DNA of 63,416 nucleotides, the filler included, from Chrysochromulina tobinii (taxonomy: Eukaryota), in NCBI GenBank assembly GCA_001275005.1. It is 5 parts of 5 records of this genome, joined end to end, with 100 filler letters (N's around TTAATTAATTAA, not from the genome) between each part and the next. Parts side by side here need not be neighbours in the genome. Positions count along the whole stretch, not along the records: positions 23,153 to 34,127 come from JWZX01001327.1; 4 more parts are not named here. One strand, 5' to 3'. Made by a program: the position numbers and the translations under genes. The notes under the pieces were generated by a model. That model had not been told where the DNA came from. It searched no databases and saw only the letters and a list, made by a program, of their open reading frames with translations. Positions 23,716-63,416 of the stretch are shown piece by piece. Every line of letters starts with the position of its first letter. Within the stretch, counting starts at the first letter, position 1.

Positions 23716-26700
23716 TCATGCCTGATTCGACGTAGAAGTACCGCCTGCCGCCAGGTTTCCCCCGGCGACGGCAGCGAAGATCGTCGAGCACCCCTCTCGC
23801 GTGTGCGGCGGCGTGTCTCGTCGCGCCGTGTCGGGCGGCGCCGTGTCGGGCGGCGCCGTGTCGGGCGGCGCCGTGTCGAGCGCCCCTCTCGCATGTGCGG
23901 CGGCGCGGCCAGCCGCCAGTAATGCCCGCCGTCATCAGCGATCATCAGCGCGGCTGGAGGGCGCCGTTTCATGTCGCGCCGTGTCGGGCGGCGCCGTGTC
24001 GGGCGGCGCCGTGTCGGGCGGCGACTCGCCGGGGTGCGCGCCATTGTGCATCGATCGGAGCCACGCGCCAAAGTCGCGCGTGCTCGGCGCTTTGAGCGCC
24101 TCCTCCCAGCCAGCCTTCATGAACCAGAGACCCTGCCGCTGATCGAAGACGACCTCGCCGTGAATGTGAACCGCCGAGCCCATGATGATCGACTTATCGC
24201 AACCGGCCTCGCCGTGCTTCTTGTCGCCGCACGGCATCGAGTTCGGCGGGAAGCAGTGCAATGCGTACGCGTGGCTCAGCAGATGGTTCCACAGCTGCCA
24301 CTTCTTCGTCTCCACCTTATCGTCCGAGGGCGGCTTGCTCGTGCCGTGTTTAAGGATGGGGCACGCGCGTGCCACGTGTACATGGGGCAGCACCACAAAC
24401 TTGCTCGGGTGGTACTCGGTGATGCCCCATGCCTTCGACTCGTCCGCAAACTTGGTCGAAAAGTCCGCAATCCCCTTCATGGGAGAGGGCGAATGCCATC
24501 GCACGTTGGCATCGTAGATCGCGTGGTTGATTGCCCATTGGTCGCTCGCCTGCCACAGCGGAACCAGAGGTCGCAATCAATGGTCACACTCATAGGGCAA
24601 TCAGCGGCCGCACCATGTGCGGCAGCACCAGAGGCAGCCGCCAGTGGCCCGCTGCGGGGTGGCCGCCGGCCGGCCTCTCTCGCCTGCCATCTGGGCTGCT
24701 TGGCATGCAATCAGCATGCAATCAGCATGCAATCAGCATGCAATCAGCATGCAATGGCCGGCCGCTCTCGCCTGCCATTTGGGCTGCTTGGCATGCAATC
24801 AGCATGCAATCAGCATGCAATCAGCATGCAATCAGCATGCAATCAGCATGCAATGGCCGGTCGCTCTCACCTGCCATTTGGGCTGCTTGGCACGCTTGGC
24901 CACGATGCGGGCTTGCGTATCACGGAAGATCTCGATCGTGCGCGGGTTGGATCGAACAAAGTAGAAGCCCGTGCAGATGGCGGCGCCCCATTGCTTGACC
25001 ATCGAGATAGGCCGTCCCCAGATGCGCTCACCGATGATATCGCCATCCTCGAGGAGTGGTGCCGGGCTGCGCGCTCACAATCAGAGGTCATCAGAGGTCG
25101 TCAGAGGTCATCATCAGAGGTCATCAGAGGTCATCGGAGGTCATCATCAGAGGTCACCTGCGTAGGAAGATCGCGTCCAAGTCGGCGAAAAGGACGTTGA
25201 AGCCGCTCTCGAGCACGCGCAGACCGAAGCGCTGCCGCTCGCCGATGACGTTGAGCTTCGAAATCATGACCTCGCCGCTCGCAACACGTGGCAGCAGCAG
25301 GGCGGGCGGCGCGTCGAACCGGTCGAAGATCTTGCCTAATTTGGCATCCATGGCGACGAGCACGAAATTCGTCACTTGGATCGAGCTCGCCGCCTGCATG
25401 CAATTGAGCGCGAGGTCGACGAAGTCATCAGAGGTCATCAGAGGTCATCAGAGGTCATCAGAGGTCATCAGAGGTCATCAGAGGTCATCAGAGGTCACCT
25501 GCATGAAATTGAGCGCGAGGTCGACGAAGTCGCCCGTGGCGAAGAGAAGAATGACCGTGTGGCAATCCCATGCGCTCGCGACGGCGCGATGCAAGACGCG
25601 GCGCGCCTCGGGCGGCAACTCGCTCGCATTGCCTCCCATCGCATCGGGCAGCGGCGCGAGTCGACTTCCCGCTCGCGCCGCGTGCCGGTGCGAGGCGCAC
25701 ACGGCCTGTGTCGCAGCGTCGTCCTGAGCGTCGTGCGGCGCTGCGCTGGGCGCCGGCCGTTGAGTCGCAGCGTCGCCCGACACGGCGCGAGCCTGCCGTT
25801 GAGGGCGATCGAGCGCATGGAGCGCTGCGCTGGCGCGGGGCGAGGGCATACCTGTCCGAGGGACAACTAGGCAGCCTGCTCGACGCCCCTTGCACCAGAT
25901 CTTGTCGATGTCATACGTGAGCCGGGGCAGCGCGGCCAGCATCGCCGCGCGCTCAGCCGCGCCCACCCCAGCGCTCACCCTAACCGCCCCGCCGCCCTGC
26001 GCCCAGGAGAGCGCGCCCGAGGCGCCCATCGCGGCGCGTCCGGCGCCGTGCGTGCAGTTCATCACATCTCCGGCTTCGAGAGTGCGCGTGAGCAGGTAGT
26101 GCGACGTGTACGGTTTGGCCGGGAGCACGGTCAGGTGCAGGAAGCACGCATCCGCGACCGACGTGCCCGTCAGTGTGGGCAGCGCCTTGGCGGCCGCGAT
26201 CTCGCGATCCGAGGTCGCGAGCACCCGTCGCACCTGTGGGGAAGAGGGGCGCCGTGGTGAGCGCTTGCATGCGAGGCAGGGGAGGTCGCGAGCACCCGTC
26301 GCACCTCGGAGCCAGGGAGATTGTAACTGTCGCCCAGGTGGTTCCACTCTCATCATAATCAAGGGAGATCGCACCTCGGAGCCTGGGAGATTGTAACTGT
26401 CGCCCAGGTGGCGCACGCACACGCCGCGCTGCCGTACCTGTGGGGAAGTGCGGCCGCGCCGTGGTGAGCGCTTGCATGCAAGGTGGCGCACGCACACGCC
26501 GCGCTGCCGTACCTGTGGGAAGGGCGGGCGCGCCGTGGTGAGCGCGTGCATGCAGGCCACGAGCGCGCACGCGCACGCCGCGCAGCCGTACCATCGCATT
26601 GAGGTACAGCTGGTCGCACAGGATGCGGCACTCGAGCTTCCGCCGGTCCCACCCGTCCAGCAACGGCAGGTGCGCCGACGACAGGACCATCACACCGCTA

Positions 26701-27518
26701 TTGAAGATGCGCACCCGCTTGACGGCCTCGGGCGAGCACACGCTGGGGAGCGTCGTCTCGAGCGCGTAGAGCGAGCAGAAGGCGCGCCCGTGCATCGCGT
26801 GCCAGCCCTGCTTGTGGAATCCCTCGTACACCGCGCCCAGCTCCTGGCACGGCGTGGCTGCGAACACGTCCGCCGCGTACGGCGAGACTAGCACGTCGTC
26901 ATCAATGAAGAGCAGCTGGTCGTACCGGCGCAGGTACCACTGCAGGAGCGGGAGCTTGATGAAGTGGGAGTTGGCGCCCGCCTGCAGCGTCGCATTCCAG
27001 CTCGCGATCGCCACGTGCGCGAACGAATCCACAACCACGAACTCGGCGCCGACGCGCCGGGCGTACGCCTCCATCGGTAGCCGCGTCACCGCAAAATGCG
27101 AGCGCTTGCCGATCGAGAGCGTGACGACGACGCGACGGCCGTTGGCGATGCAGTGGTGCTCGGCCTTGGGTACGCACGATGCCTCGCTCGGCGCTTGCGA
27201 CTGCGCCGCCGCCGCCACCGTCTCGTCCTCCTCGTCCCGCTGGCCTTGCCGCCTCTTCTTCCACTTCTTCTTCTTATGCTGCTTGCGCTTGCCGCCGATG
27301 GCACGGCCGCGAGTGGCATTGCTCATCCACGGCCGCGGCAGGGTGCCGACCTCGGCGCTCGCGCCCGCCTGCTCGCGTAGCGTGCGGTCGAGGTCGGGCT
27401 CCTGGTAGCCAGAGCTGGGGCCGATGGGGACCGGCCAGATGGGAGCGAGCAGCAGCCAGAGGATGGAGATCACGAGCACCGCATCCACCACGACCAGCAC
27501 GCGGCGCGGAGGCGACAT
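23716..27518 (-). CDS. Multi-exon two-domain glycosyltransferase (GT8/GT34-like plus GT77-like), type II membrane protein
   Basis: Exons 27518-26592, 26437-26375, 26233-25499, 25393-25158, 25066-24871, 24549-24030 and probably 23744-23716 (GC donor; otherwise stop at 23935). All splice phases are consistent. Domain 1: LLFIDDDVLV, IFNSGVMV, CDQLYLN. Domain 2: VLFADLDAIFLRSP, CTGFYFVRSN, SDQWAIN. Confidence 0.8.
23790..24025. repeat. 15-bp minisatellite (gcgccgtgtcgggcg) in two blocks, inside a probable GC-AG intron 23745-24029
   Basis: Repeated units; minus-strand donor G|GCGAGT at 24029 and acceptor GGCAG at 23745. Confidence 0.65.
24550..24870 (-). other. Spliceosomal intron with (TGATTGCATGC)n minisatellite and two copies of the upstream exon end
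   Basis: GT..AG; removal joins KWQ|ASDQW; 24772-24793 and 24684-24705 copy exon 24871-24892 (22/22 and 21/22). Confidence 0.85.
25067..25157 (-). other. Spliceosomal intron made of (TGATGACCTC)n minisatellite
   Basis: GT..AG; removal restores IFLRS-PAPLLEDGD. Confidence 0.85.
25394..25498 (-). other. Spliceosomal intron: (TGATGACCTC)n 5' module plus 33-nt copy of the upstream exon end supplying AG
   Basis: 25394-25426 matches exon 25499-25531 at 32/33; removal joins NFMQ|AASSIQ. Confidence 0.85.
26234..26374 (-). other. Spliceosomal intron containing a 60-nt copy of its own spliced exon junction plus the 3' module
   Basis: 26282-26341 equals exon 26211-26233 plus exon 26375-26411 (59/60); ends GCATGCAAGCGCTCACCACGGCGCCCCTCTTCCCCACAG. 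Confidence 0.85.
26438..26591 (-). other. Spliceosomal intron: two rounds of [downstream-exon copy plus 3' module]
   Basis: 26481-26512 equals exon 26406-26437 (32/32); 26565-26591 is an older copy (25/27); removal joins LNAM|VRQRG. Confidence 0.85.
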
Positions 27519-27797
27519 AAGCGGCGCGATACCCTCGCCACGGAGCACGCCGAGGGCGCATTCCGGCGTGACGATGCCAGAGATCATTCGCAAAAGCGTC
27601 GGAACCCATCTCGTCCTGGTACGCCTAAGTTTACTAATTTGACTTCGACTACATGTATCCCAGGCGTCAACCCCAAACATTGGCTCGATGACAGCTCGAT
27701 GAGTGTGAGGAGAATCGCGCTCACTCGCGTCCACGGACTGGCGCCGACGGACTGGCTCGTGTGCCGAGCGCTGAGCGGACTGCGGAGGCGGTCGACC

Positions 27798-28355
27798 ATG
27801 CTACTTGAGCTTGCGGTGGGCTTGGGGGTCCTATCACGCAGCCTGCTCTGGGCGCGCGACGCCGACTCGCCGTCCGACATCTGCGCCACCACCGTGCACG
27901 GAGGCATGCTGCTCGAAGCGCCGCCTGCGCTCGGGGCGCCATCACCGGGCAGTTACGCGCTCGACTGGGAGTACGGCGGCGACGCACCAGTCGCAGCACC
28001 CTCCGCACCCTTGCAGTCTCGCCTGTACCTCCCCGAAGAGCGCGACGCCACCTTCTGGGCGGGTTGGGCCATAGGTGCGGCACTCTCGTACATGCTCTTC
28101 CACGCCTTGCCTCGCTGCTGGCTTGAGCGGCGGCGGCGCGCGGCGGCATGCGTCGCCCGCCGCGTCGGCGACCGCATCGAGCTCCTCACGCGCCGCCAAG
28201 CCAGCAGCCAAGGATCTGAGTGGGTCGTCCTCTCCGAGCGCCTCGACACGAAGCACAAGGCGCACGACTGGGCGGAGCGTTACCTCGACCACATGATGAA
28301 GGGCGGCGTGTTCGTGGCGGCCAGCGTGGTCGTCAACCACGTTCCGGGCGGCTGA
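27798..28355 (+). CDS. Uncharacterised small membrane protein
   Basis: Signal-like MLLELAVGLGVLS and hydrophobic FWAGWAIGAALSYMLF; divergent from the glycosyltransferase gene. Confidence 0.55.
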   Translation: MLLELAVGLGVLSRSLLWARDADSPSDICATTVHGGMLLEAPPALGAPSPGSYALDWEYGGDAPVAAPSAPLQSRLYLPEERDATFWAGWAIGAALSYMLFHALPRCWLERRRRAAACVARRVGDRIELLTRRQASSQGSEWVVLSERLDTKHKAHDWAERYLDHMMKGGVFVAASVVVNHVPGG

Positions 28356-28774
28356 CGAGGATACGAGAGCTTAGGACGGCACGCGGGGCCTGCGGATGTA
28401 CTGGGAGGGAGAGAGATAGAGAGGCCCGCGCCGCCTCGGTCGCACGGACCACGGTCCGACTCCGCGTACTCGACGCTCGAGCCGTCGAGCACATACGATT
28501 CAAAGCACAGGTCGAGAAGCACTACGGTACGAGCCAGGTCGTTGATGGACAAAATCATGCATTGTTACTCCGATTCTCCCCCTACGCACTCTGTAACCGA
28601 CGTACATGTATTCTCTGTCACGCGCCCCCGTCGCGTGCGTCGCGCTTCACCGCACCGCACGGCACTTGCACGCGCCTATGCTGACTGTCACGCCCCGCCA
28701 CCCGCCAGCACTTGCGTGCTGACTGTCACACCGATAGCACTTGCATGTAGCACGATTATGAGCAGCGCATAGAC

Positions 28775-28837
28775 GGAACTGCTTCTCACCTGTGGGGAAC
28801 TCCTTCTCACCTGTGGGGAACTCCGTCTCACCTGTGG
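28775..28837. repeat. 21-bp tandem repeat x3
   Basis: ggaact[g/c]c[t/g]tctcacctgtgg; the minus strand reads TTCCCCACAG|GTGAGA. Confidence 0.85.
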
Positions 28838-28930
28838 GTGCGTCGAGAGGAAATCGATCGAGATCTGACCTCAGACTACGCCTCTCCACCAGAAGAAGGC
28901 TAACTCTGCAGCCGACGACATTGCAACTTG

Positions 28931-31753
28931 CTATGTCGTGCGCAGCTTCTGGCCGCCATTGCAGCGGTGGTAGGCGAGGACGTAGTCGATGTGCACGTAC
29001 TCGGAGTGGAAGAGAACAAACTCGCGGTAGCGATCGATCACCTGGCCCAGCTCGGCGATCAGCGAATGGTGGCAGATTGGTGGCATGACGCCCGGCACCG
29101 CCGAGAGCTCACGGAAGTTGATGGGGAAGATTTTCTCGCGAGTGTCCATCGAGGTGGCCGACTGGCCCATATGCTGCGTGCGCACGGGGAAGCCGAGGGC
29201 CGCGCGCACCACGAGAACGTAGAAGACGTCCTCCGGGTGGCGCATGGTTCTGCCATACAGCCGCTTGTGCAGCTCACTGCTCTGGTCCCACGCGCTGTCG
29301 GCGCTGACGTACTGATCCGTCTTGCCAACGTCCTCCGCGAGGTAGACGCCGTCGCCGAAGGCGGTGCCCGCGTTGGTGCCCGAGTAGCGCTCGTTCAGGC
29401 CCGTGGACAGCAGAGCTAGCAGCCGATCTGGGTTGGTGCCATGCAGGAGGATGACCTCATTGCAAGCCTCCGAGAGGGTGAAGCCGCGCACGCGATCCGT
29501 CTTCACGGGCAGGCCGGGCACGTAGGAGACATCCTTGCCCTTCCTCTCGAGCAGCTCGAGCTCCTGCTGCACGCGCTTCACGCCGGCCGTGTACCTGTCC
29601 AGGTTGCGTGGATGGTCGACCTTCCACGCACACGCGAGCTTCAGCGAGTCGTACGAGCCGTACTTTTTCGACACGTCCTTGCCCTTGCCGAGCCACTCTG
29701 GGCGCTCTGTCTGGAGCAGCGCCTCGAGGGAGCGCAGCAAGCGCGCATCGGTCTCCGGCAGAAGAGCCCGGAGGGCGAAGCCGTCCTCCTCCAGGGCGAG
29801 ACGAGCCTTGTTCTCGGCGGCCGGCTGTCCGAGCAGGCTGTGGAAGCCCCACGGGGTACCTGTGGGGAAGGGTGGCGCCGTGGTGAGCACTTGCATGCAA
29901 GGCTGTCCGAGCAGGCTGTGGAAGCCCCACGGGGTACCTGCTTGTCCCCACAGCGATACGCGCGCTGTGGTGAGCACTTGCATGCAAGGCAGGTCATCAC
30001 TGGCAATCAACGTACCTGGTTGTCCCCACGAGTTCCACGCGCGCTGTGGTGAGCACTTGCATGCCAGGCAGGTCATCAGTGGCAATCAACGTACCTGGTT
30101 GTCCCCACGAGTTCCTGGTTGTCTCCTTCGCGGCCGGCGCGTGGATGCACGATCCACACTTGTTGAGAAGGTTGTGGAAGAATGCTGCCCTGTCCTCCGC
30201 CTTCTCCGCCGCCTTCTCCGCCGCCGCCTTATCGGCCGCCGCCTTCGCGGCCGCCGCCTTGTCGGCCTTCGCCTTGGCCGCCTCCGCCTTCCAATCCCTG
30301 TTTCGAAGCGCACGGGGAACTCACGCTCTTGGCGCTATGCAGTGGCGCCCATCACGGCGCGTCGTCGCGTGCAATCAGGAAGCGCGAGGGCTTGCGAAGG
30401 GTGGTCGTGAAGATGGCAAGGCAGTCAGAGGCAGTGGAGGCAGCAGCGCCCTCTCCGAGGACGACGGCGTGGGGCGACGGCGTGGGGCGACCGAGTGCTA
30501 CTGATTGCTCGTGAGTGCTCGTGAGTGCTGCCTGATTGCTGCCTGAGTGCTGCCTGTGAGTGCTGCCCGAGTGCGCCCGAGCGCGCCTGAGCGCGCGCCT
30601 GAGCGTGCGTCGGGGCGCTGTCTGTGGCGCGGCCGGCGCGGCCAACCGCAGCCGCAACGAGAGTGGCCACCCAGGCCGCCAGTGCCGCCGACTCCCGGTG
30701 TGCCCATCACGGCGCGCGTGGCACGCGCCCCACTCGGCGGCAATCGTCGCCACGGAAGGAAGCGCAATCGCAAGGCACTCTCACGCGACGCAGGTCGGCC
30801 GTCGCGTCCTCTCGGCCGCATCCCGTGGCGAGTCGCCGCCGTTTGTTCGCCGTCGGCCAGCCATCCGCCGACGGCGTGTGCCCAAGACGGCGCGGCCGCT
30901 GCGTTCGAGTCGCTCTGCTCGTTCGGTCTTCATCGCGTACCTAGGCTCGCTCAGCAGGGCGACGACCTCGCTGTGGCCATTCTCCCGTGCGCAGTCGATG
31001 GCCGTATAGCCGGACTTGTAGCCAGGGACGTCTCGCTCGTCTTCGAAGAGTCGATCGGCGCCCCCTTCGAGGAGGCGCTTGGCGATCGCGAGGTGGCCTC
31101 TGGATGAGGCCTTCATTAGAGCTGTCTGACCGTAGGCGGGCTAGAGACACAAGAGGGGATAAGCGCGAGATCACTCTACGTAAGCAGACCCTTGGCATTG
31201 TGCTGGGAGAGGGCAAGCTCAAGACTTACATCCGTGTCGTCGACCTCGATCGCCTCGGTTTCGAGGAGGAGGCGGACGCACCCTTCGTGCCCTTTGTTTG
31301 AGGCCAACATCAAAGCTGTCCATCCGCCGTCCTGTGGCAAATGCAGCACACGCGGCGTCATCGAGTGCCAGAGCACGCGAGGAGCGTGGGCGAGCACGCG
31401 GGGGTGCGGCGCGCGCCATGCGACGAGGACGCGTGTGCCAAGCTCGGCAGGGCGGCGGGGTGGCGGCGCAGCCAGCGCGGCCGCGCGCGATACAGCGAGC
31501 TCTGGGGACAACGCGCCGTCTCGGGCGAGCGCGGCGGCGAAAGCAGCAGGGGACAACGCGCCGTCTCGGGCGAGCGCGGCGGCGAAAGCAGCAGAGGCGG
31601 CGAGGACGCGGGCGCCCACGCGAGGCACATGCGGCGGCGCACCTCAGGATTGTGCCAGTTGACGTTGCCTCCACGCTCGATCAGCCGCGTGAGCTCCGCC
31701 TCGTTGCCGTTCCTTGCGGCCTCGCACACGGCCTTGCCCATCGAGTCGCTCAT
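28931..31753 (-). CDS. Ankyrin-repeat plus PARP catalytic domain protein (tankyrase-like architecture), 5 exons, 514 aa
   Basis: Exons 31753-31643, 31331-31230, 31140-30941, 30297-30095, 29859-28931 (1545 nt, phases consistent, all GT-AG). Ankyrin motifs GWTALMLASNKGH, GQTALMKASSRGH, GYTAIDCARENGH. PARP motifs LLHGT, AFGDGVYLAE, REFVLF. Confidence 0.85.
29860..30094 (-). other. Spliceosomal intron built from repeated modules and copies of both flanking exons
   Basis: 30016-30036 equals exon 30095-30115 (21/21); 29901-29937 equals exon 29823-29859 (37/37); three GCATGCAAGTGCTCACCAC cores. Confidence 0.85.
31504..31593. repeat. 45-bp tandem duplication within intron 1 of the ankyrin-PARP gene
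   Basis: ggggacaacgcgccgtctcgggcgagcgcggcggcgaaagcagca x2. Confidence 0.8.
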
Positions 31754-32317
31754 CGCGTCCGCCGCGCTTATTACGCCCGCGCCCGCTCGGCCACCTGCGC
31801 ATTCGGGGGGGCACGCGCGGCTCCGCTGTGACGCTCGGGAGGCGGCGGCGCGCACTCCGTCGCAATGCGCATGCAGCGCGCCCATAGGCCCCTCGGAGCT
31901 CGGGTGGCCGCGGCGGCAGCCGTGTGGCGCGAGGGCGCTCGAAGCGACCACGGCGCGCAGTCGAGGCTGCCGCAACGCCTGGCTCCCGAGGCCCCGAGCA
32001 GCGTGGTGTGGGCGTGCGAAGCAGCGGGCGAAGCAGGCCATCGGGCTCGACGAGGGCATTGGGTAATGCGCGCCCGCACGAGGGGATTGCCGAACTCACG
32101 TCCACCGTGCTTTGGCATTGACTTTTGGAGGACCCACACCTGTGAAACGTTTTGTGCAACGTCTGTGAAGTGCCCGTGGGCGGCGCGCGAGGCGTGAGGT
32201 GGGCACTTGTACCTGGTCCACGTGGGCGAACCTCCAAGCGGGTGCCTCGCCGCTCATGCCACTCTGATCATAGGTGGGGGCTGGGGGCTGTGGGTGACAT
32301 TACGGTTTGTCGTTTCC

Positions 32318-32460
32318 TGCGTTTACGCGGTCGGGGGTGCGTATACGCAGAAACTTGTGTATACGCGAGGGGGTACGTATACGCACCCGCTGTGTATACG
32401 TACTACCGCTCGCGTAAACGCACCTACCCGCGTATACGCACCCGACGCTGCGTTTACGCG
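32318..32460. repeat. Intergenic cluster of GTATAC palindromes with a 14-bp inverted repeat
   Basis: gggtgcgtatacgc (32335-32348) pairs with gcgtatacgcaccc (32430-32443); five GTATAC sites in about 100 nt. Confidence 0.6.
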
Positions 32461-32917
32461 GGGACGCGACGAACGCGTCATGTGAGTCGTGTAATCGTGT
32501 TACTGTGATGTGTTCATGTGAAAATAGATCATAGTATTATAATAGTATTACGTTAACGGGGGGCGGCAGCGCGGCACGGCGGCGCAGCGGAGAAACGGGG
32601 AATTGAACCTCCGGACGGTCCGGCTCGCTCGTTCTCGTTTGGGAGGAAATCCTCGACGAGATGCGTCGTCGCGTGCTACGTTGTACGTAGTCCGCAACTC
32701 CGCATGCGCAGTACGGACGCCTATGTGGGGGTCGATACGCACTCGCTCGCTCCCGGCCATGGCTCACAGTGGCTCCCCCAGACGCCACGGCAGCCAGCAC
32801 ACGAGCGCCGCGATCCCCATCTGTCCCGCGCTCAATCGGCAGCGGAGACTGAACGTTCAGAGTGCGTGTGTGAGACTCGGAGGTGAGGTGAGCCCAGAGC
32901 CGCGAGTGCATGCAAGC

Positions 32918-34034
32918 TCACCACTTGTGCTCATACAGCTCTCGATATGGCGTGGGCAGGTAAGGCGAATCACGGCCGGGTGGCACCGTGTACATGCTCA
33001 GCTCGCAGTCGCCATATTGCCACGCCGGTTCGCGGCCGTCGTTGCCATCTGTGCCCCAGTCCTCGAGATCGCTGAGGAGCAGCCGCAGCCTTCCGCCAGG
33101 TCGCAGCGCCGTCTCGGGCAGCATGGCGCCCTTGTCGGGCAGCGGCGCGATCAGGAAGCAGAAGCCCTGCCCGAGCGAAGTGCGACTGAGCGCATCGGGC
33201 AAGTTGTCGAGCGCCGCGAAGGCCTCGTCAAGTGCATCGAGCACCTGTGGGGAAGGTATGGCGCCGTGGTGAGCACTTGCATGCGAGGTCCTCGTCGGGC
33301 GCCGCGAGCACCTGTTGATGATCCATGCACTGCTCCCACTGGCCAAAACGCTCCCACGTCCTCCCACTCGCCTTCGAAGCGGCCGTGCCTCCCGCAGCCT
33401 CGGGCGCCGCCGCCGCCGTTGGCGCAGCCGTCGCGTCGCCCTCAGCCAGTGTCGGCGCGATCACAAAGGACGAGAGGCGCAAGTTATCGGCGGGCGACTC
33501 GCCATAGTGCAGCCATGTCTTGGCGAGTGGCACCGAGAAGATGCCGCGATTGCGCCACCGCTTGCCGGCCGCATCGAGGTACGTATCGATCGTCGGGAAG
33601 ATGTAGCGCGGTTCGCCGTTACGCAGCACCAGCCCAATCGCCATACGAGCGCATGGCACCGGCAGGTCCGCAGGAAGCCAGAGCTGTTCAAAGGATGATG
33701 GAGGAACGAAACTGGCGCCCGAGGTCCAGTCGACGTCGGCTGCAGGCGTCGGTATGCGGGAGACAGGCACACGGGAAGTGCTTCCTTTGCCGTTCACAAC
33801 CCAAATCGGCCACGAGCTGCACGCCTCCAGCGGAAGGGTCTGCGCCTGGAAGGGCAGTGGAATTGATCGCGCAACATCGTCGAGCTGCTCCACACGCACG
33901 TTGCCGGCGCAGATTGAAATCCGGTCGACGAACCTGTCTGGCACAGGCGTATTCCAGCTCGTCGTTTGCAGCGCGGCCGACCCGTGAGCGGCGAGGCAGA
34001 CCACTACGAGCCGACCTCGCCAAGCATTCAGCAT
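32918..34034 (-). CDS. Uncharacterised protein with N-terminal signal peptide (possibly plastid-targeted), at least 2 exons
   Basis: Exons 34034-33312 and 33244-32918 join in phase 0 (HQQ|VLDAL); hydrophobic leader LVVVCLAAHGSAA. Confidence 0.7.
33245..33311 (-). other. Minimal 67-nt intron: decayed downstream-exon copy plus the 3' module
   Basis: First 29 nt match the next exon start at 22/29, followed by GCATGCAAGTGCTCACCACGGCGCCATACCTTCCCCACAG. Confidence 0.85.
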
Positions 34035-44232: not shown

Positions 44233-44305
44233 TACCCCCGGAGAGAATCGAACTCTCAATCTCCTGATCCGTGGTCAGGCGCCTTGTCCATTGGGCCACG
44301 GGGGC
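44233..44305 (-). tRNA. tRNA-Arg (anticodon ACG)
   Basis: 73-nt cloverleaf: acceptor GCCCCCG/CGGGGGT, anticodon arm CCTGA-CCACGGA-TCAGG, T arm GAGAG-TTCGATT-CTCTC, followed by a T5 Pol III terminator. Confidence 0.93.
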
Positions 44306-54964: not shown

Positions 54965-56974
54965 ATGGACGCACAGCAACAGCTCCAGAATGATGCCAAT
55001 CCTTCCGTGGACACATTTCGGGCTGCTTCCGGTCCAGACCCCGTGGATGCTGAATGTTTCACGGTTGTAACGTACAACATTCTCTCGTCGGCCCTGGCGA
55101 GCCCGGATTGGTTCCGCAATTGTGATCCTCGTGATTTGGAAGCCGATACGAGGCTACAACGCGTCTTGCACAAGCTGGGGGCGCAGGTTGAGAAGCGGGC
55201 CATCATCTGTCTCCAAGAGGTCTCTCGGGGCTGGAGCGGCAAGCTGCATGCCTTCTTCCAGCAGCGCAACTACACGTTCATCGACTCGCTGTATGGCGCG
55301 CAAGTCTCCGGCTACATGGGCGTCGGGCTAGCCTTCCCTAACGAACGGTGGAGAGCGGCTGACATCGACATCCAACGCATCGCCGACACCAAGGACGCAT
55401 GGATTGTTCCGGAGCGCGAGAAGGTGTGGCGGCCCTCGAGCTCCGAATCTCGCGTCGGAGATTGGACCTGCCCTTCGTGTGGCGCCCATGTGTTTGCCAC
55501 CAAGGTCGCGTGCTATCGGTGCCATGCGCCCAAGCCGGAGGTGGTGCCAGAGACGAATGGCGCTGCGTTGGGTGCTCCGTTGGGTGCTCCGTTGGGCGCG
55601 GGTCCGTTGGGCGGGGCGCTGTCGTCGCTCTGGGATTGGCTTCGCGCGCGGTGCGGAGCCGGGGCCATCGGCGTGAGCGGCAGCAGCGGAGCAGCAGCTG
55701 CCGCAAGCAGTAGCCTGGAGCACGACGATGAGCTTGCCCGTGCGCTACAGGCGGAAGAGTACGATCGCGGCGTAGGCAAGCCGCGCCGCGGGGTCGCCTC
55801 GAACGGGGCGGCGGAGGTGCCGGCGTGGTATGATGCAGCTCGTCGCAAAGAGAACACGATGGTCGCGGTCCATCTGAGCAGCACGAGCCACGAGCTTGTC
55901 CGCTTGTGGTGCGCGACCTATCACATGCCATGTGCCTTCGACCAGCCGAAGCTCATGGCGATGCATGCCGCGATGGCCATGCAGCACCTGCAGCGCCTCG
56001 CGGCCCCGATGAGCGTCCCTTGCATCCTCGGCGGCGACTGGAATCTCAAGCCGGCCGACCATGTGTACGCGCTGCTCACGACCGGAGCTATGCCCGCGGC
56101 GGCGGCGAGTGACGACGCATACCCAGCCCCGTGCCCCGAGGGTGACACGTGGCAACCCGATCTGTGCTGCCCAATGCGTAGCGCTTACCACGTGGCCCAT
56201 GGCCACGAGCCCGAGTTCACCAATTTTGCCCAGTCGATGAAGGATAGTGTGCCCTTCATCGACTGCCTGGACTACGTCTTCATTTCACCTCACGTGGCGG
56301 TGCGGAGCGTGCCGGCGCTGCCAGGGCGGGAGGAGGTGTCGGGCCCATTCCCCACGGCACTCGAGCCGTCCGATCATCTGCTCCTCTCAGTTGACCTCGC
56401 ACTGCCTGCCCTGCCCGACGGTTCGCATGCGACGGCGTATGCGACGCCACTGTCGGTGGCCCCCGGCGGCGATGCCTTGCCAATGGGCAGGGAGGGTGGA
56501 TATCTCGGCCATATCTCGGCCATATCTCGGGATGCCTTACCAATGGGCAGGGAGGGTGGAGGATGCGAACGGGGTGGTCGTGGAGGAGGCGGAGTGCGTG
56601 GTGGCGAGAGGGCCGCCGCCTCGGCGGCCCAAGATGCTCAACTGGAGGCTGCCCGGCGCGCCCAGCTCACCGCGTTCCTCCAACGGCCGGCCGACAAGTC
56701 CCTGAGCTTCCCTCCGACGCTCAACAGCTTCGAGCGCCGCCTCGTGCACTCACTCGCCGAGGAGCTCGGGCTGCTTCACATGAGCGAGGGTGAGGGACGT
56801 GGACGCTACATACGAGTCGAGAAGAAGCCGCCGCCGCCATTTAGCGGAGAGGGCCACCGCCTGGCCTCCGAGTCCGACCAATCCGCGGCCGCGGCAGAAG
56901 CGGCCCAAGTCGTCGCGATGACTGCCGAGGAAATGCGCGCGGCGCGCCTCGCCGCGCTCGAGAAGCGGTCATAG
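54965..56974 (+). CDS. CCR4/nocturnin/PDE12-like EEP nuclease with RanBP2 zinc finger and R3H domain
   Basis: VTYNIL, CLQEV, GGDWN, LDYVF, PSDH; GDWTCPSCGAHVFATKVACYRC; FPPTLNSFERRLVHSLAEELGL. Confidence 0.88.
   Translation: MDAQQQLQNDANPSVDTFRAASGPDPVDAECFTVVTYNILSSALASPDWFRNCDPRDLEADTRLQRVLHKLGAQVEKRAIICLQEVSRGWSGKLHAFFQQRNYTFIDSLYGAQVSGYMGVGLAFPNERWRAADIDIQRIADTKDAWIVPEREKVWRPSSSESRVGDWTCPSCGAHVFATKVACYRCHAPKPEVVPETNGAALGAPLGAPLGAGPLGGALSSLWDWLRARCGAGAIGVSGSSGAAAAASSSLEHDDELARALQAEEYDRGVGKPRRGVASNGAAEVPAWYDAARRKENTMVAVHLSSTSHELVRLWCATYHMPCAFDQPKLMAMHAAMAMQHLQRLAAPMSVPCILGGDWNLKPADHVYALLTTGAMPAAAASDDAYPAPCPEGDTWQPDLCCPMRSAYHVAHGHEPEFTNFAQSMKDSVPFIDCLDYVFISPHVAVRSVPALPGREEVSGPFPTALEPSDHLLLSVDLALPALPDGSHATAYATPLSVAPGGDALPMGREGGYLGHISAISRDALPMGREGGGCERGGRGGGGVRGGERAAASAAQDAQLEAARRAQLTAFLQRPADKSLSFPPTLNSFERRLVHSLAEELGLLHMSEGEGRGRYIRVEKKPPPPFSGEGHRLASESDQSAAAAEAAQVVAMTAEEMRAARLAALEKRS
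56471..56560 (+). repeat. 30-bp coding duplication flanking a 30-bp (tatctcggcca)n insert
   Basis: 56471-56500 vs 56531-56560 (29/30); insert 56501-56530. Confidence 0.85.
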
Positions 56975-62216: not shown

Positions 62217-63416
62217 CGTGTATCTCCGAGGTGCATCATATGCCTCTGCGACACTGATCATCCTGCCCGCCGTCTTCGGACGTGCTGCGGTCTCGAGATA
62301 CACGTGTTGTGCTTCGAGCAGGCCGTTACCGCCGATCCACTCCGTTGCCCGCATTGCCGCTCCTGTTTCGCCTGCCTCTTGCAGGGCTCTCAGTGTCGAG
62401 CATGTGTACGGACTGTGGCTGAGGGTGCAGCGAGGGCAGCTGCCATAGCCGCCGTGGCAGCTCGAGAGGCACAGATGGCGCTGGAGGTACGGGAGACGAC
62501 GGAGGAGGCTGGGATTCAGGCTGCAGCTGCGGAGGCCACGCCCCACCCGGCGCCTCTTCCTCGGCCTCTTCCTCGGCCTCGGATGGAGACAGCTCATCAG
62601 CCAGGCTTTGGCGCTCGCGCTCGGGAGGCACTCTTGACCGAGACGGCATCGGGTACGGTTCGGGCGGCCGTGCCAGACGTCGACCCGGAGTCAGCCTACC
62701 CACAGCCGGAGCTCCCACTCGCCTCAGCCGGAGTCCCAGCGGATTCCTCACTCGTGGCGGCTCAGTGGACGGCGATCGACAGAGTGGATGCTCTCCAGTG
62801 CGCCATCTCGCCGTGCTCTCAGCTGGCTCACGTGCCAGATGCCTTCCGTACGGATTGGGCACGGGCACAGTCTGAGGTCTTCGCTATCCTCCTCGATGGT
62901 TTCGCTCTCTGGAGGGCCTCTGGAGACCGATCTGCTTTGGATCGGGGCCTTAAGTGGCATCTTGCCCTTTCGGCTATCCTCCTTCGAGGCCGGCGTCGTG
63001 CTGGTCGTCGCGGTGACGCCGCCGTCGCTCAGCGCTTTGGTCACTGGCGTGCTGGCAGACGCGATCTGCTCGTGCGGCTGTGGCTCGACGACCGGGGGAG
63101 ATCGGCGGAGTACCGTCGTCTACGCGCTGAGTCTTCGACACCGGACCCCGCCGCCACGATCGAGCGCGTCCTTGAGCACATCGACGACGGAGAGCTCTCG
63201 CGGGCTCTGCGCCTGCTCCATTCAGCGGGCATTGCTGATGTTGATGAGGGTGTGCTCGCTCAGCTCCGGGCTAAACACCCGGAGCGAGGTGAGCCGGTGC
63301 CAGCAGCTATCGAGGGAGACTTCACGCGCCACCGCTTCGACCTCACCGAGCACTTTCGCAGGCTCCGCCGTTCGGCGGGTGCGGGACCTGATGGTTGCCG
63401 TAACGAGTACCGCACT
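62217..63416 (+). mobile_element. CRE-like non-LTR retrotransposon ORF (5' part, runs off the window) with N-terminal RING-like finger
   Basis: Open frame from 62217 to the window end, absent from the ORF track. CIICLC...TCCGLEIHVLC...CPHC, then GELSRALRLLHSAGIA, LAQLRAKHP, SAGAGPDGCRNEY, typical of the region just before the RT of CRE elements; the RT core itself is not visible. Confidence 0.7.

Follow-up and report, generated by a model that had tools for sequence, protein, structure and literature searches.

Six introns in three genes of Chrysochromulina tobinii consist of a 21-37 nt copy of the adjacent exon adjoining a short reused module, and a seventh contains the module only. These module introns are young, their positions being empty in relatives, and the module has likely spread by copying from existing introns in DNA repair and not as a classical transposon. 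The window, meaning the whole stretch of DNA analysed, measures 63,416 nucleotides and comprises five contigs with N linkers between them; all of the features listed in Table 1 lie on the minus strand of a single contig (23153-34127).

Table 1. Genes, module introns and intron units on the contig at 23153-34127.
Feature	Position	Strand	Description
Gene 1	32918..34031	-	348-aa product, matches no Pfam family; one module intron
Gene 1 3'-type intron	33245..33311	-	Downstream-exon copy 22/29 (decayed), core, pyrimidine tract, CAG
PARP-domain gene (PF00644)	28931..30329	-	Putative extent at 5' end
PARP gene intron	29860-30094	-	Two 5' units (copies 21/21, 13/21) and one 3' unit (37/37)
PARP 5'-type unit 1	30016..30094	-	GT module, core, upstream-exon copy 21/21 with AG at end
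PARP 5'-type unit 2	29938..30015	-	97% identity to unit 1 across 79 nt; exon copy 13/21
PARP 3'-type unit	29860..29937	-	Downstream-exon copy 37/37, core, CAG
Gene 3, glycosyltransferase-like (PF03407; weak PF01501 also in homologs)	23935..27518	-	923 aa, five module introns
Gene 3 intron	26438..26591	-	Two 3'-type units, 79 and 75 nt; copies 25/28 and 32/32
Gene 3 compound intron	26234..26374	-	5'-type unit (own filler, upstream copy 36/37), then 3'-type unit (copy 23/23)
Gene 3 5'-type intron	25394..25498	-	GT, decamer array, upstream-exon copy 32/33
Gene 3 decamer-array intron	25067..25157	-	No long exon copy; 5-nt match only
Gene 3 compound 5'-type intron	24550..24870	-	11-mer arrays; upstream copies 22/22 and 20/21; third segment 134 nt

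Copy scores were 21-37 in five of the six duplicated introns and 11 (ungapped) in the decayed sixth, compared with at most 9 in seven ordinary introns that were chosen by eye from other parts of the window. A better-preserved exon copy of the decayed gene 1 intron is kept in the close alleles P0136 and P0137. In the PARP-domain gene, the exon copy of the second 5'-type unit matches an older exon end present in P0092 and P0096, and the 3'-type unit is missing from P0092, P0186 and P0044, the ends of its module coinciding with piles of loose ends at 29856 and 29899. An initial annotation of this DNA had described separate 5' and 3' modules. Both types exist, but the PARP 5' and 3' modules hold the same branch-site core and are thus overlapping halves of one intron-like sequence. 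The exact restoration of the reading frame, which the annotation had also stressed, does occur; it follows automatically from the X-module-X layout, X being the duplicated segment, and is therefore no separate evidence.

The same layout was found at related loci. A direct repeat lies beside 183 of 250 core-module sites as against 15 of 738 controls, the 250 sites including tandem units and alleles and so not all being independent. At core sites the duplications measure 12-57 nt with a median of 26, under a score cut-off of 12 that hides shorter ones. For a second module, the decamer array, duplication was detected at 131/213 sites and at 5/1035 controls. Automatic calls divided the 250 core sites into 76 of 3' type, 28 of 5' type, 30 mid, 49 without splice register and 67 without duplication. 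A scan blind to the modules added 49 X-filler-X events in which the filler differs and often consists of reiterated short units. Copy length and module length trade off against each other (rho -0.63), with a period of 78 ± 8 nt, and one motif is carried by an estimated ~3200 stored metagenome stretches, redundant assemblies counted. The hybrid design first proposed for the six introns, in which a target duplication is joined to a half-intron module without terminal inverted repeats (TIRs) and by recent gain, holds at scale.

The modules of the 3' class have a fixed 3' end and a ragged 5' end, whereas those of the 5' class start exactly at GT and stop a few bases past the branch-like site; all of the exact-start 5' modules (12/12) are preceded by AG. 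Among unlinked loci the 5' module is ~95% identical (median, 43 nt), which indicates copying over long range of the kind that a mobile element shows. In 3'- and 5'-type units similarity did not reach both intron ends, one end being target-derived, although a few cases resemble whole introns (P0199, L010/L122). TIRs were absent from the module ends, which are ragged, among the 25 longest of 108 inverted pairs, and no terminal direct repeats were seen in the module alignments.

Several comparisons point to existing introns as the source of new modules. Module similarity was 0.62 within a locus (89 pairs) and 0.535 between loci (4282 pairs), a difference obtained in 0 of 5000 permutations, and within-locus similarity showed no trend with distance up to ~4 kb (rho 0.015). 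Flanks of at least 8 nt are shared in 11/259 within-locus pairs, representing five independent loci, versus 8/23979 between-locus pairs. At L077 the daughter module brings with it 7 nt of the parent's flank, after a 5-nt microhomology, and L114 is an inverted pair. The target flanks of full 5' modules have at least 7 nt in common with another carrier in 13 of 20 hand-chosen loci (1.7 expected); a first, unfiltered flank test was weaker, with 7-nt runs in 18/47 versus 4.5 and p=0.094 for the mean run. Microhomology at the left junction averaged 2.1 versus 0.46 nt in a small set (n=7). Targets begin like donor sites, with G at -1 in 61/74 versus 109/359, a pattern as compatible with selection as with microhomology. 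Some splice-less copies translate in frame, and those at one locus (L044) are antisense. Splice-less units have a length of 3n in 18/32 hand-chosen, hand-collapsed events (p=0.006), an excess confined to that set, since the raw class without splice site is flat modulo 3 (19/10/20) because decayed introns are mixed in. According to the available part of PMC7407515, the outcomes of alternative end joining include direct and inverted templated insertions and short tandem duplications. The module insertion first annotated needs refining here, since the evidence favours copying from existing introns over insertion of a fixed-ended element.

The mechanism that we favour, and hold to be probable by a modest degree, is microhomology-guided template switching at staggered breaks, which would copy part of an existing intron and duplicate the target, with selection retaining the spliceable products. 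Counting against it are the high identity of 5' modules at unlinked loci, the lack of a relation between within-locus similarity and distance, and the sense orientation of most copies. A broken or stalled DNA end would switch by microhomology onto an existing intron, copy 25-55 nt of it and return 12-57 nt upstream of its departure point, the repair route being perhaps Pol theta-type end joining or fork template switching. Selection would then retain products whose length is 3n or which make up a GT..AG unit of ~57-97 nt. The new junctions could feed back on this process: a 3'-type intron presents a CAG end and then a donor-like exon start, a 5'-type intron begins after an exon AG, and annealing at such junctions might set a new copy in exact splicing register without a transposase, while recreating the same junction for the next round. 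We suggest more tentatively, at slightly less than an even chance, that introns breed in this way without transposase, each new junction being the homology that aims the next repair copy at a cryptic splice site in register, so that half-introns spread genome-wide, amplify themselves and go unseen by current introner screens.

An RNA-templated origin, in which a reverse transcriptase (RT; non-LTR, or a repair polymerase acting on RNA) would take part of an unspliced transcript or of an excised intron as template at a staggered nick and leave a long variable duplication with a truncated module, appears unlikely to us, though it would suit part of the data. Copies are strongly biased to the sense orientation of the gene (52/54, 19/20, 13/14 and 16/21 among confident calls), a bias for which selection accounts in introns and less clearly in splice-less copies. 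Parent and daughter often occupy one gene irrespective of distance, and the fixed and ragged ends of the 3' class, together with the exact GT start of the 5' class and its stop just past the branch-like site, are as such copying might produce. On another contig, an open frame at 62217-63416, which we take to be possibly the beginning of an RT, provides a putative RT start, for which Pfam gave no confirmation. However, target-primed reverse transcription has one polarity and the two classes here are mirror images; the copies have neither poly(A) nor a tRNA-like head, and antisense copies (L044) and the inverted pair (L114) occur.

Less probable again is a non-autonomous HUH transposon, Replitron- or Helitron-like, that moves in trans and gives variable target duplications and a parent-derived fuzzy end. 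As described in the available part of PMC10288648, Replitron-1 of Chlamydomonas reinhardtii likewise has variable target site duplications (TSDs), inserts just past RG and carries parent flank at its fuzzy end; it differs in its length of 0.9-3.6 kb, terminal direct repeats and single polarity, and that part describes no intron-forming role. Variable duplications and a fuzzy end with parent flank are present here too. A Replitron protein has been reported in C. tobinii, and a 12-nt palindrome lies within the core and its usual left flank. A fixed end after RG in one polarity is, however, seen in the 5' class only, through the AG before its exact-start modules, and not overall: in the 3' class the fixed end is the opposite one and lies at a GT target, and splice-less copies have two ragged ends. 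The layout recurs with unrelated fillers, terminal direct repeats were not seen, and the predicted folds are weak (no shuffle control).

Other candidates were rejected. A viral carrier was dropped because the only match on a viral contig resembles a join of phage-type and algal DNA. A small RNA carrying the module, raised by the initial annotation, found no support, since Rfam gives only one tRNA in the window. A hairpin was set aside on weak folds, computed without a control, and a SINE or non-LTR retroposon on the reversed polarity of the 5' class and the lack of an Rfam match in the region and of poly(A).

Recent gain of the introns is supported by empty positions in relatives. None of the five gene 3 intron positions bears an insert in 12-14 homologs, two of which keep extra segments elsewhere and so look genomic, and among 34 distant homologs of gene 1, 24 continue uninterrupted across the intron position. 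PARP relatives form an empty-to-filled series to which different units were added stepwise, and filled and empty alleles exist side by side. Relatives' proteins thus cross the junctions without inserts, which answers the annotation's call for empty sites in related genes and removes the ancient, shared positions that it had named as a refutation. Its claim of repeated strikes on the same site is borne out by the PARP series and needs qualifying elsewhere, as part of the repetition is tandem amplification between direct repeats (two units in the L036 allele, one in L083). The contrary reading, that the introns are old and that local slippage, gene conversion or an extended branch-site consensus secondarily produced the exon copies and shared motifs, could draw on this variable unit number, on the 67 of 250 core sites without duplication and on a difference between L014 and L139 without polarised direction. 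It is already largely refuted by the empty gene 3 and gene 1 positions, the PARP series and the absence of copies from the seven ordinary introns, and we consider it improbable.

Gene 3 encodes 512 aa when unspliced and 923 aa with all five introns removed, and the spliced protein is ungapped at the first three junctions against 14/14 homologs and at the last two against 12/12. RNA contigs from two runs depart from the DNA at 26585, where the leftmost cut of the intron at 26438-26591 is predicted, and those from three runs depart at 24548, the predicted leftmost cut of the intron at 24550-24870. The RNA check proposed initially therefore gave support at one end of each of these two introns, joined-exon rows not being among the matches listed; absent RNA cover at the gene 1 and PARP junctions counts for nothing either way. 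An independent DNA assembly has 0 differences across 24550 and 26585, where the RNA contigs stop. Assembly artefacts or unspliced repeats, in whose favour stand the unlisted joined rows and the module sequence that RNA contigs also hold, are scarcely credible in view of this agreement, the divergence of the copies, the informative differences among other alleles and the conserved spliced protein, so that the artefact that would have overturned the initial annotation did not materialise.

Tandem duplication of an AGGT site is an intron-gain model in which the exon copy supplies a splice site. The present introns are alike in their exon-derived splice site and differ in that 25-55 nt of non-target filler gives the branch site and, in most cases, the other splice site too. 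The available part of Gozashti et al. 2022 (PMC9860276) lists internal duplication among intron-gain routes and describes introners, including families from Chrysochromulina MAGs, that draw one of their splice sites from a short TSD. They share with the present system the gain of many introns through a repeated sequence, one carried splice site with the other from the target duplication in either polarity, the lack of a TIR in the Chrysochromulina example, and introns at positions empty in relatives. In contrast, the introners described there have TSDs of 3-9 bp (4 bp in Chrysochromulina) and similarity at both ends; here the short TSDs of MITE-type introners were not encountered, duplications spanning 12-57 nt or about one third of the intron, and one core occurs in both polarities with ragged ends. 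Since the introner screen demands similarity at both intron ends (PMC9860276), introns of the present design would likely be missed. The core motif is absent from the parts of the introner supplements examined, whose tables may not include consensus sequences.

In the haptophyte Emiliania huxleyi, introner fam24 is described in the available part of PMC12130899 as 'co-opt 5' carry 3'' with '10bp terminal direct repeats'; compared by description only, it differs in its five copies and 10-bp repeats. The same part of that survey gives 0 introner families for C. tobinii. The annotation had allowed for a prior record in haptophytes, and introner families are indeed known there; the literature searched, chiefly open-access papers, contains no description of mirrored half-modules with long variable duplications. 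Daphnia neointrons, in the available part of PMC4202315, are alike in having the end of the neighbouring exon directly repeated at the intron's far end, a feature present here, in recurrent events per site and in a break-repair origin from staggered double-strand breaks. Their repeats are of 4-12 bp and the source of the insert is mostly unknown, whereas the filler here is a recognisable intron piece with a branch site; the Daphnia-type junction microhomology and local templates are suggested here by small or hand-picked sets.

The source of new-intron sequence is a long-standing question, to which the main answers have been introners descended from transposons and break repair whose filler has no known source. 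The present system unites both, combining a break-repair-like signature with filler traceable to another intron. If true, this is a novel way for a genome to gain introns en masse, and its share may be underestimated because screens need similarity at both intron ends. With repeats of this length, introns could also be lost exactly from the DNA. Public RNA and DNA runs of the organism make parent-daughter tracing and mutation-accumulation tests practical. Splice-less copies add short peptides to proteins, and C. tobinii proteins may contain translations of the module. The homologs bear the labels Chrysochromulina parva (PARP paralogs, 68-79%), Prymnesium, Scyphosphaera and Phaeocystis.

The module introns are real, recent and abundant. 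The window consists of five contigs with N linkers between them. All modules of the window lie on the minus strand of a single contig (23153-34127), where seven module introns are spread over three genes. The initial annotation had claimed that six introns duplicate 21-37 nt of the adjacent exon, and the sequence matches this claim, with each copy anchored at the splice site; the seventh has a module only, without a long exon copy. Such copies are absent from seven ordinary introns chosen by eye as controls. Computed splicing of all five introns from gene 3 yields a 923-aa protein that is gap-free over the first three junctions in 14/14 homologs and over the last two in 12/12. Labels on the homologs indicate a haptophyte.

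RNA contigs from three runs stop at 24548, and those from two runs stop at 26585, in each case continuing with letters foreign to that piece; DNA contigs cross both points without differences. Each stop is the computed leftmost cut for a gene 3 intron (see the table). Position 24548 is consistent with use of the outer GT donor, as an earlier cut would be expected from the inner GC donors. The proposed RNA check of the junctions was borne out in part: departure from the DNA at the predicted cut was observed at one end each of two of the seven introns, and the joined sequence was not among the matches displayed. Assembly artefact is largely excluded.

A comparison of relatives for empty sites, which had also been proposed, revealed empty positions in homologs of gene 3, gene 1 and the PARP gene. 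The gene 1 junction is uninterrupted in 24/34 distant homologs, the remaining 10 having no coverage or being divergent nearby, and in close alleles the exon copy within the intron is less decayed than in the window. PARP relatives display a stepwise series at one site: empty (P0114), a 5' unit alone, i.e., a GT module plus an upstream-exon copy ending in AG (P0092, P0096, P0186), a 5' half joined to a 3' half via the core, the shared branch-site motif (P0199), and three units (the window). The members of this series may be alleles or paralogs. At a second PARP site, a 3'-type unit (downstream-exon copy, core and CAG) is present in P0088, P0092 and P0096, and the window has an empty site there. 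The gene 3 homologs P0128 and P0134 have no insert at the covered window positions and contain extra in-frame segments elsewhere, which we read as putative retained introns in genomic DNA. At one shared other position these two proteins have differing in-frame inserts with what looks like a short exon-start repeat on the two sides of each, and their lineages may have intron-gain activity of their own. Among the metagenome loci, L014 is without an 81-nt insert found in L139, made up of a 34-nt duplication and the module, and the unit count is two in L036 and one in L083; both differences are unpolarised, because direct repeats permit exact loss too. Old introns with secondary repeats are largely excluded.

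The metagenome scan returned 142 stretches (~3200 estimated, redundant assemblies counted in) with 271 distinct core sites, 250 of which had full flanks and were used for the repeat test. Direct repeats of 12-57 nt flank 183/250 core sites compared to 15/738 mismatched controls, and in 80 of these 183 cases the repeat is perfect. Automatic classification assigned 76 sites to the 3' type, 28 to the 5' type and 30, chiefly tandem units, to a mid class; 49 lack splice register and 67 lack a duplication. The conserved module part is ~25 nt. Arrays of decamers and 11-mers, a second module family that was not selected for, have a flanking repeat at 131/213 sites versus 5/1035 controls. Since the full 5' module consists of two decamer-like units joined to the same core, the core and decamer families form one continuum. 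After removal of 18 redundant loci, 490 kb were scanned for direct repeats on either side of a filler without reference to any module, and 212 events were detected. The filler was of the core family in 100 events, of the decamer family in 63 and of another kind in 49, with the core share inflated by the choice of loci. Many fillers outside both families are reiterated short units. Similar events with other short-unit fillers occur at two places in the window, one of them on a contig lacking known modules.

Four results favour a model in which modules would be copied from existing introns by homology. First, same-locus modules are more alike than modules elsewhere (0/5000 permutations; 94 modules, tandem units collapsed). 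Second, some daughters carry flank of a neighbouring parent (11/259 within-locus pairs, at five loci, versus 8/23979 between loci); L077 has a 5-nt microhomology at the switch point, and L114 an inverted module pair. Third, in hand-picked loci with the full 5' module at unlinked targets, at least 7 nt of flank is common with another carrier in 13/20 versus 1.7 expected, an unfiltered pass giving a weaker result. Fourth, module copies without GT..AG splice register exist, so splice sites are not required for insertion; these splice-less copies are 3n-enriched (18/32) and antisense at one locus. We propose that a staggered break would be followed by template switching onto an existing intron; template switching is described for alt-EJ (PMC7407515). 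Each intron's junction would then guide the next copy into register, and selection would account for the sense bias, donor-like targets and narrow unit length. Against homology-guided template switching, long-range copies are near-identical, and module similarity does not decay over distance. RNA-templated copying of introns would likewise fit the sense bias, as well as the parents in the same gene, but does not easily accommodate the mirror classes. A Replitron-like source closely fits the 5' class (PMC10288648) but leaves the 3' class and the unrelated fillers unexplained. Copying from existing introns possibly proceeds without a transposase.

Introners carrying one splice site and obtaining the other from a 3-9-bp TSD are known, Chrysochromulina MAGs included (PMC9860276; review PMC11282704), and the screen of PMC9860276 demands similarity at both ends of the intron. 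A 2025 survey (PMC12130899) records an E. huxleyi family whose terminal repeats measure 10 bp, but no family in C. tobinii, and Daphnia neointrons have exon-end repeats of 4-12 bp with mostly unsourced filler (PMC4202315). The window module introns are introner-like in working but fail the introner tests of whole-intron similarity, short TSD and TIR. No account of the present design was found in the literature searched; supplements outside the search or subscription papers could hold one.

Features of the window, with coordinates along the whole stretch
Feature	Coordinates	Strand	Observation
Gene 3	23935-27518	-	glycosyltransferase-like
PARP gene	28931-30329	-	
Gene 1	32918-34031	-	348 aa
Module intron	24550-24870	-	leftmost cut 24548
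Module intron	25067-25157	-	module only
Module intron	26438-26591	-	leftmost cut 26585
Short-unit filler between repeats	23783-23905		
Short-unit filler between repeats	56471-56560		
21-nt units	28775-28840	-	three, 3' of the PARP stop codon; each has the module acceptor at its end, then GT
Inverted-repeat cluster	32316-32462		between two genes; many-copy, found in RNA runs
tRNA gene	44233-44305	-	
Open frame	62217-63416	+	weak RING finger; continues past window end

The end of the open frame appears to resemble the opening part of a non-LTR reverse transcriptase; no Pfam match to an RT domain was found in this frame. The inverted-repeat cluster is perhaps a small mobile element, and the 21-nt units may be very short units of the 3' type, located in the UTR. 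Algal module-bearing DNA was observed at the end of a 'viral' contig (L001:2700-3060), which is probably a chimeric assembly. In-frame splice-less copies occur at L007, L011, L012, L042, L057, L128, L129, L133 and L044 (the antisense locus), and would give proteins extra repeated peptides. Module translations were found in 23/235 fetched proteins, and splice-less copies may mislead gene annotation. The PARP domain of the window is one of a large family (148 matches) whose members are mostly intron-poor and differ strongly at the N-terminus, a pattern that suggests domain shuffling.
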